64,000 nt of DNA from Escherichia phage phiEC1. The notes under the pieces are model-generated. The model was not told the DNA's origin and did no database searches. It saw only the letters and a list, made by a program, of their open reading frames with translations. Location: sequence record KY608965.1; one strand, written 5' to 3'. The position numbers were made by a program, and so were the translations under genes. The stretch's first letter is position 1. The number at the start of each line of letters is the position of its first letter. Below are positions 43,774 to 50,542 of the stretch, one piece after another.

Positions 43774-44232
43774 TTATAGGAGGGTAGTGAGCACCTTATA
43801 TAATGATTTGCCCATTACATATTCCCATTGAGAAGGTTTAATTAAAGCGAATGCATCAAATTCAGGAATTTGTCGTCCGTCTGGGAATGTATGATAGGAA
43901 TTACAAACACTGTTTCTGAATTGCTCGTGCTCTACAGGGATGGTATATAGGAACAGATGAATATTCTTATTGTCTGAGTAATGATGTTCACCTAGGTCTT
44001 TCAGGAAGGCAGGGTCATATTGTGTAAACCCAGTTTCTTCTTCGCATTCACGAATAGCGGCTTCAATAGGAGATTCGCCAGGTTCGACACGGCCTTTAGG
44101 AATATCCCACCGATGAGCTAATGCACCTTTAGAACGAGAACCAGTTACACGACCCATGAATAATTCTTTATCTTCGGTAAGGAAAATAATACCGGCTGAT
44201 AGTTCTTTCACTTTATTTTTCTTACTCATCAT
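43774..44232 (-). CDS. nudE: Nudix hydrolase NudE
   Basis: Nudix box GRVEPGESPIEAAIRECEEETG. Confidence 0.85.
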   Translation of the reverse strand: MMSKKNKVKELSAGIIFLTEDKELFMGRVTGSRSKGALAHRWDIPKGRVEPGESPIEAAIRECEEETGFTQYDPAFLKDLGEHHYSDNKNIHLFLYTIPVEHEQFRNSVCNSYHTFPDGRQIPEFDAFALIKPSQWEYVMGKSLYKVLTTLL

Positions 44233-44473
44233 CTCGGTCCCATGATTTGGCCATTAATTCGGACATAAATTCTTCAATGCGTGTTTCTTTAGATGGACTT
44301 TCACTATTAGAGACCGCAAGTTTGTAATCTGCAATAGGACGGAACAAATCAAGGTCCATATTAAGATCGTCTTTGATTTTTTCTTCTGACACATCTTTAT
44401 CGTATGTGTATAGATAACTATCACATGATTCCGATTTAATGTAAATTGCTATACTCATCTCAAATTCCTGCAT
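44222..44473 (-). CDS. hypothetical acidic protein
   Basis: 83-aa ORF. Confidence 0.45.
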   Translation of the reverse strand: MQEFEMSIAIYIKSESCDSYLYTYDKDVSEEKIKDDLNMDLDLFRPIADYKLAVSNSESPSKETRIEEFMSELMAKSWDRDDE

Positions 44474-44946
44474 TCGGTAATAAAACGTTCAACTTCGTTA
44501 TTCTTGGCCTTTATCTTGTCTTTACGTTCCTGTAAACTACTTTTAACAAGATTAATAATGATGCCTATAGTACCTCCACCAATTATACCACCAATTATAC
44601 TTACGATAGTAGATGCCAATAAGATAGCGATAATATCTGGTATGGCAAAGGCACTTACTTTAGTACTAAAAAACCATACCGACGGTACAAATATAATCCA
44701 TCCTGTTATCCATTGGCACTTATTGAAAAACTTTTCAAGATCAGCTTGAGTTGTTCGTATTACTTCATCGATAGGTTGATATCCATTAATGTATCTGTTC
44801 ACGATAATACCTGCTGGCTGGTCGATTTTAAATTCTTGGCAAATACGTTTCACTAAGTAGGATGGACATCCTGTCCAATCCACCGAATAGTACGAAATAC
44901 CTTCATTGCCGTCGTCAATATTAGACCAATATGTTTTGTTAATCAT
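44455..44946 (-). CDS. membrane protein, FI(K/T)ECR C-terminal family
   Basis: TM segments then C-terminal ...EVERFITECRNLR. Confidence 0.5.
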   Translation of the reverse strand: MINKTYWSNIDDGNEGISYYSVDWTGCPSYLVKRICQEFKIDQPAGIIVNRYINGYQPIDEVIRTTQADLEKFFNKCQWITGWIIFVPSVWFFSTKVSAFAIPDIIAILLASTIVSIIGGIIGGGTIGIIINLVKSSLQERKDKIKAKNNEVERFITECRNLR

Positions 44947-45632
44947 TACCAGCCTTCCATAGGGAATTCCAGATAAACTTGGGCATTGACACGAATTTCA
45001 TTGGTAATCTTTTTAACTCGGTCTGTATTACGAGATACACGTCCGAACCAACGCCATCCATTACTAATTGCACGAGAACCAGTGTGCCATGTTTGCCAAT
45101 CAAACTGAAGAAGAGTACGGTCCGGAGCTTCCCATTTCTCTAGTTCACCTTTTTCAATTTTTTCGAGGACTTCTTTGTGCCACTGGCGATAGATAAGTTC
45201 GCCATCAGGAATCTGACTGAACTCTGCAGTTCCTGTTGCAAAATGAGTAGGACACACGTCAGCGTTAACAAGACCAAGAATATGTTCAGAATGGTAACGA
45301 GGGTTGTCATAATCAGGTTGTCCTGCAGTAATAAAATGTTGACCAACCGGAATATCCGGGCGTGGTACATCATCATGGTGATAACCTGGGATAGCAGGAT
45401 ACCAACCAGGCATCAGCATGTGGACTCGTGAATCAAATACAACCTGGTCTGTGTTCCAATCATCTGGCAAGTTCATGATGAAGCTGCGAGTAATAGGACC
45501 GCCGTTATTATAAGCAAATTCTAAACTACAGTTGAAGAACATAGGCTCGTTCTTGATTTTATCATTAGAAATACCGCCGGCAAAACCACCTACTGCACGA
45601 GCTTGACTATTAAACACTTTAGAACTATTCAT
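44946..45632 (-). CDS. hypothetical protein
   Basis: 228-aa ORF, His/Asp-rich. Confidence 0.55.
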   Translation of the reverse strand: MNSSKVFNSQARAVGGFAGGISNDKIKNEPMFFNCSLEFAYNNGGPITRSFIMNLPDDWNTDQVVFDSRVHMLMPGWYPAIPGYHHDDVPRPDIPVGQHFITAGQPDYDNPRYHSEHILGLVNADVCPTHFATGTAEFSQIPDGELIYRQWHKEVLEKIEKGELEKWEAPDRTLLQFDWQTWHTGSRAISNGWRWFGRVSRNTDRVKKITNEIRVNAQVYLEFPMEGW

Positions 45633-45633
45633 A

Positions 45634-45939
45634 TTATTTTCCTCGACATTCTTTAATGAAATTTTCTAGATTGGTAGATTCAATAGCTTTTTTACGAGCT
45701 TCTGCGTGTTCTTCTTCAGACAATTTACATTTATAATTAACCCAGACGTTATGGTCAAAACTAGTCGTGGCATATAATAACAAAGCCCCGACGAATAATA
45801 AAAATGGTGATAAGAATACAAAACCAGGAACACCATCCATATCGTAAGCCTTTTGTAATACTGCAACAGAAAGAGCTGCGTAAAAAGGTGATGCAAATAT
45901 TGTTAAAAGACCAATTCGGTTGGTTTCGCCTAATTTCAT
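45634..45939 (-). CDS. membrane protein, FI(K/T)ECR C-terminal family
   Basis: TM hairpin then ...LENFIKECRGK. Confidence 0.5.
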   Translation of the reverse strand: MKLGETNRIGLLTIFASPFYAALSVAVLQKAYDMDGVPGFVFLSPFLLFVGALLLYATTSFDHNVWVNYKCKLSEEEHAEARKKAIESTNLENFIKECRGK

Positions 45940-45959
45940 AATATTCTCCTCATGTTTTA

Positions 45960-45985
45960 ATAGGACTACTATAACATAGTCCTAT
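45960..45985 (-). repeat. palindromic early-promoter element, copy 2
   Basis: ATAGGACTACTATAACATAGTCCTAT; GTAAAC at 45992-45997. Confidence 0.55.
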
Positions 45986-46009
45986 AATTGGGTAAACAGT
46001 TTTGTGAAG

Positions 46010-46966
46010 TTATTTGAAAGGTTTCACCATATGAAAATTTTCTTTAAACCGTTTGATGTAATCATTTTTGCCGAGCTTATGATACATAGCCACTACTTCA
46101 TAATAGTTCTCGTATGCGTACTCACGGAACCATCCTGACGTGATTGAAGTACAGACTTTTTCTAATGCCATCATGAAACTGGCTTCAGGGTTAATTTCAA
46201 AGTTATTAGGAATCTGAGAACGTTCTAATGCTAGTACACATGATTCTTCGTATACACCGGCCAATTTGACCATTTCCGGTAATGATTCGAACTTCTCGCG
46301 TGAGGTCATGACTTCAGAACCATCTTTCATGTAAAATGTATACGCTGGACGGTCTGTTAGTGCAATGGCTTCGTGAATAGTATCATGGTCATACGTATAG
46401 ATGTCATCTTTAAAGAATGCGCTTTTAGAAGTGTCAAGAACTGGGTGAGCATAGTTCAAGGTTTCTTTCTGGCGTTTCAGCATAATTTCAGTAAGTTCAT
46501 CGTTCAGTGTAACACCTTTACCACGAAGATACTGAATATGGTTCATAGTCTTTAAAAAGAATGGATTATTTTTCTTGAAACGATGGGACATCTTAATTGC
46601 AAGGCACATCTCAGGAGTTGCCCAGTAAAACCCGTTCAAACGGTCTTTAGTCAAATTTTTCTTGGCGTATTTTAAAAGGTCATAAGAAGACGTGAAATCT
46701 TCAGGAGTGAGTTCACCGACTAATTCACGGACATTAGTGATTGCCGGAACAATATATGCTTCAAAATGAGTTTCGCGTCCGTTATGAAAACATTTGAAAA
46801 CCTGGACGTCAGGGTTATCTTGGTGAACATATACACCCATCATTTGATTTTTGAATGCATTCCAAGAACCTTGGTCCGCAATAAAGTCCCAATCGCTATT
46901 TTTGATAGCGCTAGAATCAATAAGGCCGTGATAGTGAAGTGCACGAGAACCAATAACTAACATCAT
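46010..46966 (-). CDS. hypothetical protein
   Basis: 318-aa ORF. Confidence 0.6.
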   Translation of the reverse strand: MMLVIGSRALHYHGLIDSSAIKNSDWDFIADQGSWNAFKNQMMGVYVHQDNPDVQVFKCFHNGRETHFEAYIVPAITNVRELVGELTPEDFTSSYDLLKYAKKNLTKDRLNGFYWATPEMCLAIKMSHRFKKNNPFFLKTMNHIQYLRGKGVTLNDELTEIMLKRQKETLNYAHPVLDTSKSAFFKDDIYTYDHDTIHEAIALTDRPAYTFYMKDGSEVMTSREKFESLPEMVKLAGVYEESCVLALERSQIPNNFEINPEASFMMALEKVCTSITSGWFREYAYENYYEVVAMYHKLGKNDYIKRFKENFHMVKPFK

Positions 46967-46991
46967 AATATTTTCCTCGAATTTAGATTAC

Positions 46992-47243
46992 TTAAATTTC
47001 ACGACATGCGATATTATATTCATCCCAGAGGTCGTCATGTGAAGCCTCTACCAAAGGAACGATTGTACCGTTTATGTCTTCATTATAAGGACAAATTGTA
47101 CAGTGCGCATCTTCGAATCGGATGCCTTTGTGTTCAGATTTTTTATAACGCATATCGAATATCTTTGCAAACTTTTCACGACTAATAGTTTTAGCAACTA
47201 CTTCGGTTCCGATACTTTCGTAATAAATCATTGTAGACTCCAT
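46992..47243 (-). CDS. hypothetical protein
   Basis: 83 aa; Cys/His pairs. Confidence 0.5.
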   Translation of the reverse strand: MESTMIYYESIGTEVVAKTISREKFAKIFDMRYKKSEHKGIRFEDAHCTICPYNEDINGTIVPLVEASHDDLWDEYNIACREI

Positions 47244-47250
47244 TTAATTT

Positions 47251-47277
47251 GATAGGACTACTATAACATAGCCCTAT
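47251..47277 (-). repeat. palindromic early-promoter element, copy 3 (one mismatch)
   Basis: GATAGGACTACTATAACATAGCCCTATC; GTAAAC at 47285-47290. Confidence 0.5.
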
Positions 47278-47293
47278 CTTGTTGTAAACTGTT

Positions 47294-47491
47294 TTAGCAA
47301 GAATAACTAGATGATACCCAGCCTTGAACAGTAATACTATTATTTGATAACGAGATTGCGTCCTGGAGATTCAGACCTGCGTTATCTTCAATCCACAATG
47401 TAACTTCTTCACGTTCTTCGGTTGCAATTTGGAACAGGTTTTCCAGGGCAGCTACTGCCGTACGTACAGCACAATCTAATTCACGAGACAT
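47294..47491 (-). CDS. hypothetical protein
   Basis: 65-aa ORF. Confidence 0.4.
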   Translation of the reverse strand: MSRELDCAVRTAVAALENLFQIATEEREEVTLWIEDNAGLNLQDAISLSNNSITVQGWVSSSYSC

Positions 47492-47500
47492 ATTATTTCC

Positions 47501-47773
47501 TTAACAAGTGTGAGAAGATGCAACCCAACCGCCATCTTCAAGGCTCAGGTTGTAGTCGTATTGGTAAACGTCGGCCCATTCAGCATAGCCGTTTTTTGTA
47601 CAACGTTCAAGATCGGCTTTAAGCTGTCCGGGTGAATGATAGGTTCCACCCATACCATAAGCTGGATACAAGTCGAATGTTGTGTTTTGTTTATCAGCAA
47701 TTTCTTTGGCAGCCTCAATAGCTGCATAGATTTTTGCTACAGCTTCAGCCAGCTCGGTTTGTTCTTTAGACAT
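47501..47773 (-). CDS. hypothetical protein, tandem paralog A
   Basis: 90 aa; C-terminus GGWVASSHTC. Confidence 0.5.
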   Translation of the reverse strand: MSKEQTELAEAVAKIYAAIEAAKEIADKQNTTFDLYPAYGMGGTYHSPGQLKADLERCTKNGYAEWADVYQYDYNLSLEDGGWVASSHTC

Positions 47774-47782
47774 AATGATTCC

Positions 47783-48088
47783 TTAGCACAACGCAGAAGA
47801 CGAAACCCAAGCACCTTCAGTAATAACGTAACCATTACCTTCACGCTTAACATCGCCACCATTATTTTCAATTTCATTTTTCATCCACTGAGATACGATT
47901 TCACCCTTAGGATAATAAGTACGACCGCTACCATAATCACCTACAGAAAATGATACGGCATATTGGTCTGCGATCTTTGTTGCTTCTTCTTCGATACGTT
48001 CAGCTTGATTTAGAAGTTTATAAATTGCATCTGAAGCGGATTTGGCATCATTAAACTCTGGTACTTTAATTTCAATAATCTTACTCAT
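47783..48088 (-). CDS. hypothetical protein, tandem paralog B
   Basis: 101 aa; C-terminus GAWVSSSALC; shared MSK...A.A..KI N-terminus. Confidence 0.5.
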   Translation of the reverse strand: MSKIIEIKVPEFNDAKSASDAIYKLLNQAERIEEEATKIADQYAVSFSVGDYGSGRTYYPKGEIVSQWMKNEIENNGGDVKREGNGYVITEGAWVSSSALC

Positions 48089-48444
48089 TTTCTACATTCC
48101 TTAATAAAGTTTTCGATTGTTTCATTTTCACGTCTAGCTAGGAGTTCATTATAACTAATCATTTGAGAAGCGTAAACCTTTTTATTTTTCTTGTTATGGT
48201 TTATAAAATCGTAGTAAAAATAGACTACAGTACAAAAGGATGCTATTGATGCAAAGGCTTGGGTATACCGTAAGTCCTGCCATTGGTCTGTGAATCCACC
48301 AGTGTTACCTATAAATCCTAACACAACGCCGTCAATAAGAAATCCAACTAATCCAAAGGCAAATCCCATGCCGGCGCTCATGATAAAAATTAAAATATTC
48401 TCACCAAGAGAAGGCCATACGGTTAAGAGTTGAGGCTTTTGCAT
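48085..48444 (-). CDS. membrane protein, FI(K/T)ECR C-terminal family
   Basis: TM segments then ...IENFIKECRK. Confidence 0.5.
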   Translation of the reverse strand: MQKPQLLTVWPSLGENILIFIMSAGMGFAFGLVGFLIDGVVLGFIGNTGGFTDQWQDLRYTQAFASIASFCTVVYFYYDFINHNKKNKKVYASQMISYNELLARRENETIENFIKECRK

Positions 48445-48848
48445 CTTATTTCCTTAACGAATTCCATAGCTTCTTCATATTCATACTTTTTAACAGCTTC
48501 ATCATACTGAGCTTGGGCTTTTGCGCACTGAACTTTCCACTCGCGAACTCGAGCTCTGTGATGACGGCCTTGGTGCCAATATCCTGCCCAATTAATAGGC
48601 ATTAATAAAAACGGTACAATAAGTGGTGCGACGAACATTAATGAAAACGCTGCATCAGACGATATAACTTTATTGGAATCTAAAATAGCTCCTATAATCA
48701 TAAAGATTAAAAATGCTAAAGCTAAAATAGGGCCAAATAGTACTTCGTTTGGGATTAATTTACGTTTGTATTCGTATGCCCAGGGCTTAATTGGCATGTA
48801 CAGGGTTGGCTTTGACATATTCTCTACATTCCATAATAAATTGCTCAA
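48423..48848 (-). CDS. membrane protein (related C-terminal EFVKEIRCK)
   Basis: 141 aa, 2 TM segments. Confidence 0.5.
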   Translation of the reverse strand: MSNLLWNVENMSKPTLYMPIKPWAYEYKRKLIPNEVLFGPILALAFLIFMIIGAILDSNKVISSDAAFSLMFVAPLIVPFLLMPINWAGYWHQGRHHRARVREWKVQCAKAQAQYDEAVKKYEYEEAMEFVKEIRCKSLNS

Positions 48849-49389
48849 GGATTAAATTGTTAGTGAAATTAGGACTAACAACCATAGTTTCATAAAGCGC
48901 ATCAATAGCACTTAAAGCATCAACTCTTTTAAGCAAAGGCTCGCCTTCATACATAGTTTCAGAATCGACGATTAACGTAAAGTAATATTTTTTATTATCG
49001 ACTAGAACTTCAGTATCGATATAAAACATATTAGACCTCAGAAGCTTATCTCTAAAACCATAATAATCTTCAGAGCGTTCGCTGATATATTCCCATTCAG
49101 TGTTTAAACAACAAACAGACCATGTAGGAGCAACAAAATCGGTGAATCTAATATCATGGTCTGCAACTAGTTTAGCAATAGCTCCGATATCATGAATCAT
49201 AATACCTGGGGCTAATAAAGATTTTCTGCTATGGCCAGCCGTTTTCTCAGTGGTCTCATAAGAAGCTGACCAGTACCATTTACGTCCAGTTGCAACATAT
49301 CGTAATGAATCAACTAAAGACGTAGGTGGATTTACCTTATTTCGGAACTCTTCGAACATTGAGTCAATATCATTATTTTGGTTTCGCAT
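48787..49389 (-). CDS. hypothetical protein
   Basis: Start MRNQNNDIDSM with SD AAGGAG. Confidence 0.5.
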   Translation of the reverse strand: MRNQNNDIDSMFEEFRNKVNPPTSLVDSLRYVATGRKWYWSASYETTEKTAGHSRKSLLAPGIMIHDIGAIAKLVADHDIRFTDFVAPTWSVCCLNTEWEYISERSEDYYGFRDKLLRSNMFYIDTEVLVDNKKYYFTLIVDSETMYEGEPLLKRVDALSAIDALYETMVVSPNFTNNLILEQFIMECREYVKANPVHAN

Positions 49390-49404: not shown

Positions 49405-49430
49405 ATCCAAAAGGAGGACAAAAGTCCTCC
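49405..49430 (-). terminator. rho-independent terminator
   Basis: GGAGGAC-UUUU-GUCCUCC hairpin followed by UUUUGG. Confidence 0.6.
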
Positions 49431-49438
49431 GTATTATT

Positions 49439-50047
49439 TTATTTCAAAGAGTTAATATATTCTTGTACATCAGCAGAAGTGGTTTCGACACCAGCTGGAG
49501 TGCCATTGAACGTTTCAACACGAGTCAGAGTGTCTTCGATATCAACCTTAGTCAGTGCAGCGATTTCAATTACATCATCGGCCGTAGAGATACCAAGGGC
49601 ATTAGCTGCTCGAGTTTCACGAATGTATTCGAGTTTGATTGCCAGATTCTGACGAGCATCGTCAAGTTCAACAACCTTACGAGCAATTTCAATTCGCATA
49701 GCGGCATACCCGTCAGCTTTTGTATTAAGTTGTTCGGCCGTTCGACGATACAGAAGACCAAGCTTAGCATGCATGGTAACATCTTGTCCTTCAGCCAGGA
49801 GCTTACGAATTTCACGTTCCTTAGAAGCGGCTTGCTTGTTCTTTTCATTAACAAGTTCGCGAATACGTTTTTCTTCATTAATAGATTTAACAGAAGCCGT
49901 TTTTAGTTCTTTGATTTGGGTAATCAACTTATCTGCAGCTGCGTTATACTGTTCTTCGACAGTCAGATTTTTAGCCATAGCAGTACTCAGTTTAGTGCGG
50001 ATGAATTCAACAAGTTTCTTCAGTGTGTTCATATTATTACCTTTCAA
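49439..50047 (-). CDS. coiled-coil protein
   Basis: 202 aa, long helical heptad-like sequence. Confidence 0.55.
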
Positions 50048-50102
50048 TTGGTGGTTTATTATCCAATGAGAGCATTATACTCTGCTCTCAAGAGTTTGTA
50101 AA

Positions 50103-50330: not shown

Positions 50331-50350
50331 TTTGTTTCTCCTCTTGATTT

Positions 50351-50389
50351 GATGTGATTACTATAACATAAACTTACTTAGATGTAAAT
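50351..50389 (-). promoter_or_regulatory. early promoter cassette
   Basis: ATTTACATC...TTATAGTAATC. Confidence 0.4.
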
Positions 50390-50542
50390 TATTTCAACGT
50401 CACCTTTAGCGGCTTTATAACCTTCAGCCCAAGATACAACAGAGTTTTTATCTGAGGATTCAAATTCAGGCATTGGACTTTCACCAATATTCACACAATA
50501 TGTTTCTTCATTTTCATCGAACCAAATAATTAAAGTAGTCAT
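50378..50542 (-). CDS. hypothetical small protein (54 aa), not in ORF track
   Basis: MTTLIIWFDENEETYCVNIGESPMPEFESSDKNSVVSWAEGYKAAKGDVEIIYI. Confidence 0.3.
   Translation of the reverse strand: MTTLIIWFDENEETYCVNIGESPMPEFESSDKNSVVSWAEGYKAAKGDVEIIYI

Follow-up and report, generated by a model that had tools for sequence, protein, structure and literature searches.

The DNA considered here is a stretch of 64,000 nucleotides from Escherichia phage phiEC1 (KY608965.1), referred to below as the window. It is about 95% identical in DNA, over its full length, to RB69-like phages of the genus Mosigvirus, and its top match is Shigella phage Shf125875. The window contains a cluster of small genes, e.2, ORF101, e.3, e.4, and e.5, whose products share a short C-terminal peptide, the FIxxCR tail. 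All of the tail genes are on the minus strand, as is the neighboring gene e.6. T4 is the reference virulent phage, and about half of its genes, including the e.2-e.8 block, are without a known function. The window genes e.6, e.5, e.4, and e.3 were named through annotated relatives in ATK48, T4, and RB69. The e.2 gene was recognized by its PHROG and by tblastn matches to annotated e.2 in Bp7 and SP18. Similarity over the full length and a conserved gene order, with e.6 on the upstream side and nudE and e on the downstream side, place e.2, e.3, e.4, and e.5 in orthologous groups with the T4 genes of the same names. The T4 proteins have the same tails, and their families have been catalogued separately.

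A gene was assigned to the FIxxCR-tail set when its product has the pattern hydrophobic-x-x-[FW]-[IVL]-x-x-[C]-[RK] at about 15 residues or less from the C-terminus. The gene also had to lie downstream of e.6, and between e.6 and nudE/e where those genes exist. The products of e.2, ORF101, e.3, and e.5 have every part of this pattern, and that of e.4 has Ile for Cys. The e.4 subfamily has I, S, or V at this position and retains a different conserved Cys elsewhere in that helix, in EWKxQC. The shorter pattern [FW][IVL]..CR was counted in a greedy set of 114 genes of the window. It occurs four times, always within 11 residues of a C-terminus, where 0.015 occurrences were expected (Poisson P = 2.3e-9). 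A six-frame scan of the whole T4 genome found it only in e.2 (as a remnant), e.3, e.5, and one 30-aa noise open reading frame (ORF); T4 imm, sp, rI, rIII, and t do not contain it. The T4 tails are EFVIDCRKIK in e.3, KFVKESRCKSQS in e.4, with the variant FVKESRC, and KFVKECREYVK in e.5. Because of the window statistics and the T4 scan, it can be said that the FIxxCR tail is real, is non-random, and is limited to one gene cluster.

The T4 reference (NC_000866) has e.2 (T4 67472-67960) annotated as a truncated 102-aa protein. The remainder of the gene, including the tail NNFITECRKLK, persists in another frame upstream of nudE, and the annotated start of T4 nudE is an ATG inside the GAA-TGC codons of the motif. 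Other Tequatroviruses possess an intact e.2 of 162 aa, which ends in NNFITECRKLK.

The first tail gene after e.6 is e.5 (48787..49389), which encodes a soluble protein of 200 aa (phrog_2607). It ends EQFIMECREYVKANPVHAN, and its motif FIMECR (codons 48823-48840) is in the last predicted helix, 11 residues from the C-terminus. This fifth carrier was absent from the first-pass annotation of the region. Four other ORFs were listed there. Translation placed them on the minus strand and gave the same coordinates and endings for them, apart from the start of e.4. That start is most likely the ATG at 48818 (MSKPTLY..., matching MSKPSLY... of T4 e.4) and not the TTG at 48848. From this ATG, e.4 (48423..48818) encodes 131 aa (phrog_2604), with a two-helix hairpin and a 56-aa tail that ends EFVKEIRCKSLNS (motif codons 48444-48461). 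The e.3 gene (48085..48444) encodes 119 aa (phrog_2330), a two-helix hairpin and a tail ending in ENFIKECRK (motif codons 48091-48108). ORF101 (45634..45939; phrog_9798; cluster representative P0096) has no T4 counterpart. It encodes a two-helix hairpin with a 46-aa charged tail, ending in ENFIKECRGK (motif codons 45643-45660). Lastly, e.2 (44455..44946) encodes 163 aa (phrog_2203). Its soluble N-terminal part of about 80 aa is followed by a two-helix membrane hairpin and then by a basic helix with the tail, ending in ERFITECRNLR (motif codons 44467-44484).

The PHROG matches are strong for e.2 (E = 4.8e-56), e.3 (2.8e-49), e.4 (2e-63), and e.5 (3.9e-94). T4 e.2, e.3, e.4, and e.5 have the same PHROGs (2203, 2330, 2604, and 2607), and all of the PHROG matches are to families of 'unknown function'. 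Precomputed Pfam assignments exist for e.2 (PF26896) and e.5 (PF26876). Searches of Pfam and NCBIfam with e.2-e.6 and ORF101 gave nothing above threshold. In some public records, e.3 and e.4 are labeled 'sulfurtransferase' and e.6 is labeled 'host specificity protein'. These labels were disregarded because the same records call neighboring small ORFs 'major capsid protein' or 'portal vertex protein'. They have the appearance of pipeline artefacts and are best not carried over into new annotations.

The tail is not confined to Mosigvirus. It ends 34 tabulated proteins from eight genera, Mosigvirus, Tequatrovirus, Dhakavirus, Gaprivervirus, Kanagawavirus, Jiaodavirus, Karamvirus, and Biquartavirus. 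The other genera were reached by following the conserved neighbor e.6 and then reading the genes downstream of it. Further copies were found in three more genera, including six in Roskildevirus FBB1 and the form FIHSCK on an e.5-like protein of Pseudotevenvirus EBPL. A Morganella phage has the degenerate forms FVISCY and FVRDCF. The tails have the consensus hydrophobic-x-x-[F/W]-[I/V/L]-x-x-C-R, after which come 0-15 residues, most of them basic. Every tail gene is downstream of e.6. Eight genera have nudE and e, and in these the tail genes are between e.6 and nudE/e. The number of tail genes per genome varies, with one in an Aeromonas phage and six in Roskildevirus and Karamvirus.

The tail carriers are of three kinds. 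The first are two-helix membrane proteins, of which e.2-, e.3-, and e.4-like families occur in several genera and others in a single genus. The second is the soluble protein of 178-316 aa that is always encoded next after e.6. The third are small soluble proteins of 99-116 aa. The tail is found on small membrane proteins, as the first-pass annotation had it with its varied membrane anchors, and also on the soluble e.5 family and the 99-116-aa proteins; some of the anchors are diverged paralogs. In all, at least eight protein families in the block, in at least eleven genera, are tied together by one peptide under protein-level selection. Conservation in orthologs of related phages had been named as a check on the motif, and the tail is kept in them.

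Database searches with the proteins themselves reached less far. An exhaustive profile search with the four hairpin proteins of the window found seven proteins, all of the same families. Homolog searches returned close relatives alone for e.2 and 12 proteins for the e.5 profile, and a search of viral contigs for related loci returned six. The short tail and the hydrophobic helices set the limit of what HMMER can reach. More distant T4-like phages match lysozyme e solely through the lysozyme domain of gp5.

The codons used for the tail can indicate the level at which it is conserved. Among the tabulated tails, the motif Arg is encoded by AGA (12), CGT (9), AGG (5), CGA (4), and CGC (1). Cys is encoded by TGC (16) and TGT (11), and Phe by TTT (24) and TTC (8). 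The motif positions +2 and +3 vary freely and F, I, C, and R do not. The peptide ENFIKECR is common to e.3 and ORF101, and the two genes differ synonymously at four of its eight codons. Because synonymous codons are so diverse at the conserved residues, selection on the motif must act on the amino acid sequence.

The relationships among the tail carriers were explored through profile-profile comparison with hhalign. The products of e.3 and e.4 are true paralogs. Their homology extends from the second membrane helix through the linker helix and into the motif (P = 5.9e-9, 53 columns), and both have an M-x-K-P-x-L N-terminus. The C-terminal half of e.2 is related to a 103-aa hairpin protein of Roskildevirus (P = 1.6e-6, 86 columns). 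ORF101 has a weak match to the e.2 PHROG over the hairpin and the tail (E = 0.0019). When e.3 is compared with e.2 or with ORF101, the alignment is confined to 17 tail columns. The first-pass annotation had called the N-terminal parts unrelated. This is not upheld for e.3 and e.4 or, less clearly, for ORF101 and e.2. By these profiles, the membrane carriers are at least in part a tandem-duplication family that has diverged. It is predicted that e.3 and e.4 arose by tandem duplication and that the other carriers are either very diverged paralogs or proteins that acquired the tail as a module.

The soluble proteins in the e.5 position belong to a single family with very divergent sequences. For six of its seven other members, identity to the window protein is 16-20%, and for T4 e.5 it is 46%. 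An alignment of eight sequences has just five invariant residues, the start Met, N96, F184, C188, and R189, and these are also invariant in an alignment of 11 sequences. Since F, C, and R of the motif are three of the five, the motif is the most constrained part of e.5 as well.

The membrane topology of the carriers was predicted from Kyte-Doolittle windows and charge. Two hydrophobic helices are present in e.4, ORF101, T4 e.3, and Tequatrovirus e.2, and one clear and one weaker helix in e.3 and e.2 of the window. The loops between the helices are short and net acidic, and the C-terminal tails are rich in K and R. The membrane carriers are therefore predicted to be hairpins of two helices with both ends in the cytoplasm (N-in/C-in), with the loops in the periplasm and the tail in the cytoplasm. 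This agrees with the cytoplasmic side that had been proposed for the tail at first pass. The tails are 38-57 residues long as measured, and that of the window e.2 is about 29 by eye. Their conserved hydrophobic positions are spaced i, i+3, i+4, i+7. Mean hydrophobicity is at or below zero (maximum 0.11) and amphipathicity is moderate, so the tail is more in keeping with a helix that binds protein than with one that binds lipid.

The T4 orthologs are covered by two published studies. Genes e.2-e.6 of T4 belong to the early RNA class, and all of them were detected in infection, both as RNA and as protein; by proteome, e.4 and e.5 are early, e.2 is middle, and e.3 is late (PMC9697503). The doubt raised at first pass, that the proteins might not be expressed, thus does not hold for the T4 orthologs. 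Knock-down of each of T4 e.2-e.6 by CRISPRi-ART was scored 'Not Fit', a label for no fitness defect; the function of each is listed as unknown (PMC11879866). The T4 counterparts are dispensable in the laboratory.

The most economical reading of the tail is that it serves a shared partner or signal. The role tentatively preferred here, at a probability of roughly 45%, is that of a docking helix for a shared partner. The tail would be a short linear interaction motif that binds one common cytoplasmic protein. The two-helix hairpins are predicted to keep the motif on the cytoplasmic side, with a charged segment of 29-56 residues leading up to it. The Cys-Arg pair would give a specific contact, and the positions i, i+3, i+4, and i+7 would give a hydrophobic face. 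Early in infection, the fast-diverging hairpins and the soluble e.5 would bind the partner and so build an assembly anchored in the membrane. T4 itself offers a precedent, as its unrelated proteins gp43, gp33, and gp55 bind the gp45 clamp through a C-terminal peptide that they have in common. These peptides, and motifs of the beta-clamp or PIP type, follow the same logic, with unrelated proteins docking on one hub, and in the case of T4 in the same phage. However, the sequence, the partner, and the membrane-proximal setting of the tail are different, and the likeness is one of analogy and not of homology.

The gene next to the tail genes is a candidate for the partner. In the window, e.6 (49439..50032) encodes 197 aa. 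A promoter-like site upstream of it (50074..50102, minus strand), TTTACA-17-TATAAT, has 11 of 12 consensus matches and is proposed on the consensus match alone. A terminator-like, GC-rich hairpin followed by a T run (49413..49430, minus strand) separates e.6 from e.5, and the T4 sequence has an equivalent hairpin. The e.6 gene was found in 1100 phage records. The co-occurrence of the tail and e.6 covers twelve genomes. In 11 of them e.6 is directly upstream of the gene in the e.5 position, and in the twelfth, the Morganella phage, it is one gene away.

An AlphaFold2 model of e.6, built from an alignment of 47 sequences (pLDDT 79), has helices at residues 3-22, 25-80, 86-145, 151-160, 166-174, and 186-196. 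A helix at the N-terminus comes first, the helices 25-80 and 86-145 pair as a long hairpin, and the short helices of the C-terminus follow. This is the layout of the PspA/Vipp1/ESCRT-III fold, in which the first helix is amphipathic and the hairpin is that of alpha1 and alpha2-3. Vipp1 accounts for six of the first eight PDB matches of the model in Foldseek, and also for ranks 9, 15, and 22. The archaeal ESCRT-III proteins CdvB2 and CdvB appear from rank 7. The Vipp1 matches have probabilities of 0.98-1.00 and TM scores of 0.44-0.51, or 0.70 with a truncated Vipp1. When the e.6 profile was compared with PDB sequences, a collinear but non-significant match was obtained with Vipp1 sll0617 (E of about 1-2.4). 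A PspA/Vipp1-like fold is thus probable for e.6, on the strength of the model. The N-terminal helix of e.6 (window 50003-50032) is near-invariant, with L-K-K-I/L-V-E-F-I-R-x-K-L, and F10, I11, R12, and K14 are conserved in the 47 sequences. It resembles the hydrophobic-x-x-F-I core of the tail, a likeness that may be due to coincidence or to mimicry. Literature searches on T4 e.2-e.6 and on a PspA of phage origin gave nothing of relevance, and no paper on a PspA/Vipp1-like e.6 was found.

More speculatively, then, the partner of the tail could be the e.6 product, with the hairpins acting as PspB and PspC do for PspA. PspC binds PspA via a cytoplasmic C-terminal helix. The likeness to PspA with PspB and PspC is one of working parts: small inner-membrane proteins, a cytoplasmic amphipathic helix at the C-terminus, and an adjoining gene for a protein with a fold of the PspA/Vipp1 type, which for e.6 is predicted. 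The hairpins would recruit a membrane-protecting or membrane-remodeling polymer to the inner membrane. The full version, in which e.6 is a phage protein of the ESCRT-III superfamily and the tails on the hairpins and e.5 recruit or regulate its polymer, is unlikely as it stands. Such a Psp-like module could keep the infected cell energized against membrane-targeting abortive infection, superinfection, or premature lysis.

Several points weigh against a docking helix or against its link to e.6. No phenotype backs any function for these genes, since knock-down of the T4 genes had none. The Cys is not strictly required, because the e.4 subfamily lacks it at the motif. In e.5 the motif may pack on the protein's own globular domain instead of being a free tail; a low-confidence model (pLDDT 57.5) has it in the last helix, residues 179-194. 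PspB and PspC do not have the FIxxCR motif. In hhalign comparisons of e.2, e.3, e.4, and ORF101 with PspB and PspC, probabilities were 2.8% or less, and there was no Pfam match at E<=0.1. As for e.6, its Foldseek E-values are 0.015-0.05, with none at 0.001 or below. It has no match to Pfam PspA_IM30 (PF04012), and by hhalign its similarity to E. coli PspA is not significant (probability 0.5%). Its candidacy is suggested by adjacency and by a predicted fold.

Another explanation is that the tail helices bind one another. The products of e.2, e.3, e.4, e.5, and ORF101 would form homo- or hetero-oligomers, with no separate partner. They would make up a single membrane complex in which e.5 is the soluble subunit, and the conserved Cys would possibly be bridged by a metal or a disulfide. 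The spacing i, i+3, i+4, i+7 is heptad-like, and each tail has a single conserved Cys; the e.4 subfamily has a further conserved one, in EWKxQC of the same helix. In addition, the genes are adjacent and translationally overlapping, and the motif is confined to the cluster. However, the number and identity of the tail genes vary by genus, from the one of the Aeromonas phage to the six of Roskildevirus and Karamvirus, and this variation suits interchangeable adaptors more than it suits a complex with a set stoichiometry. In addition, disulfides are unusual in the cytoplasm. Self-association is rather unlikely, and it is the alternative that survives best.

The tail could also be a C-terminal degradation or protection signal. 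It would be read by a protease or chaperone of host or phage origin, such as FtsH, Lon, or ClpXP, and would set the lifetime of these early proteins. A short, exposed, conserved C-terminal peptide with a basic flank would suit this, and T4 is annotated as manipulating host proteolysis through PinA, a Lon inhibitor. However, the distance from the motif to the C-terminus is 0-15 residues, which is atypical of C-terminal degrons. The tail is not known to resemble any established degron. The carriers also do not share a temporal class in the T4 proteome, where only e.4 and e.5 are early (PMC9697503). A role in turnover is improbable.

The first-pass annotation had suggested that the conserved tail on varied anchors could be that of superinfection-exclusion or lysis-control proteins. 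The hairpins would then be holin-like, antiholin-like, or Imm-like, and the tail would be their regulatory domain. The genes are just upstream of the endolysin gene e. The small size, the two membrane helices, the N-in/C-in topology, and the charged C-terminus recall class II holins and Imm. Hydropathy and charge are compatible with the class II holin architecture, which is a generic feature. The likeness to class II holins and T4 Imm extends to size, helix number, predicted topology, charged tail, and position next to the endolysin. The differences are in early expression, dispensability, the lack of a family match, and the presence of the same tail on soluble proteins. A class II holin would be expected to be expressed late and to be required for lysis, and the T4 literature, which concerns T4 and not this phage, has early transcripts (PMC9697503) and no knock-down defect (PMC11879866). 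Searches of Pfam, PHROGs, and NCBIfam gave no match to holin or exclusion families. Membership in the Imm or Sp families was rejected for the same lack of a match, and for the confinement of the T4 motif to e.2-e.5, which leaves out t, rI, rIII, imm, and sp. No link to lysis control or superinfection exclusion was found, and such a role is doubtful to about the same degree as one in turnover.

Two explanations that bypass the peptide fare worst. In the first, the conserved stretch is the translation-initiation region of the next gene, with its Shine-Dalgarno element and spacer, and the peptide is a by-product. In each of the five window genes, the motif Arg codon does end near the ATG that follows, at -1 to +10 nt, and AAGG, AGGA, or GAGG is present within the K-E or R-x codons in four of five. 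This ribosome-binding site overlap probably biases the choice of AAG-GAA and of AGG or CGA-GGA codons without explaining the motif. Five Arg codons from both codon families are used, as are both codons for Phe and for Cys, and positions +2 and +3 are free while F, I, C, and R are fixed. In SP18 and CIP9, a distance of about 20 nt or more separates the motif from the start of the next gene (by eye, from annotated coordinates). In ORF101 and e.2 the Shine-Dalgarno-like element is in or after the Arg codon and not in the K-E/T-E codons. This explanation is effectively refuted by the codon data.

In the second, the gene ends would be recombination linkers for cassette shuffling, comparable to promoter-early stem-loop repeats, or would be homogenized by gene conversion. 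The region is plastic, with an insert of about 3.1 kb between e.3 and e.2 relative to T4 and a natural deletion chimera (P0098). The 22-nt stretches that encode the motif (family D2) are 77-91% identical, and real promoter-stem-loop repeats (family D1) are nearby. However, the identical peptides of e.3 and ORF101 differ synonymously at about half of their codons, which indicates no recent gene conversion. The DNA identity does not exceed what codon bias predicts, by an estimate from the codon table and not a formal expectation. The motif is kept across genera while the DNA beneath it diverges, and with synonymous diversity at every conserved residue there is no DNA conservation beyond what the peptide needs. 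This explanation is very improbable.

The remaining elements of the region are mostly in the insert between e.3 and e.2. In addition to ORF101, it contains three small ORFs, an 83-aa ORF, a 318-aa DUF7275/DUF7277 protein, and a 228-aa ORF. The three small ORFs (47294-47491, 47501-47773, and 47783-48088, minus strand) are in tandem and encode 65, 90, and 101 aa, the last being phrog_899. They end in G-W-V-S-S-S-x-x-C at the very C-terminus. This family has 3-5 tandem copies in Dhakavirus, Gaprivervirus, and Kanagawavirus and two in Karamvirus, with the variants FWFNSSMSC and IWYPSSC. It is a second family with a Cys-containing C-terminal motif, interleaved with the FIxxCR genes. The 318-aa protein (46010-46966, minus strand) and the 228-aa protein (44946-45632, minus strand; phrog_1843) accompany the tail genes in several genera. 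The 228-aa protein is labeled as a 2OG-Fe(II) oxygenase in one public record and has a strongly conserved HHDDVPRPD...NAQVYLEFPMEGW. Beyond e.2 are a 78-aa ORF, then nudE, and then the lysozyme gene e. The 78-aa acidic protein (44222-44458, minus strand; MSIAIYIKSESCDSYLY..., phrog_2900) is thus encoded between the last tail gene and nudE. It is present in Mosigvirus, Dhakavirus, Gaprivervirus, Jiaodavirus, and Karamvirus and not in T4.

A 57-nt repeat is present in three copies, 45946-46002, 47238-47294, and 50338-50394, with 74-77% identity to the reference copy. It contains an extended -10 promoter-like site, TTTAC[AC]-17-TG-TATAGT, spanning a stem-loop, ATAGGACTA...TAGTCCTAT. The repeats resemble the promoter-early stem-loop cassettes of T4-type phages. 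They precede ORF101 and the 83-aa ORF, promoter-like sites precede e.6, and the repeats flank inserted gene blocks. The chimera P0098 is a database protein in which the 72 N-terminal residues of a Mosigvirus e.3 are fused out of frame to sequence from downstream of e.2. It corresponds to about 48230-48444 of the window joined to about 44254-44424. It implies a natural deletion of about 3.8 kb, which removed the block between e.3 and the 78-aa ORF.

The tail genes were already known as genes for T4 hypothetical proteins with PHROG and Pfam families of their own. The searchable literature and the family libraries have no record of one C-terminal motif common to these families. What appears undescribed is the single selected motif across them and their constant neighbor with a predicted fold of the ESCRT-III type. 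With the motif, a list of 'hypothetical membrane proteins' becomes a single system that can be tested with one bait peptide, three mutable residues (F, C, and R), and one candidate partner, e.6. With a host protein as its partner, the tail would mark a new family of host-targeting effectors. If the partner is e.6, these phages would encode a membrane-maintenance system of the ESCRT-III type with its own adaptors. This would bear on how lytic phages maintain the membrane of the host and on their conflict with membrane-acting defense.

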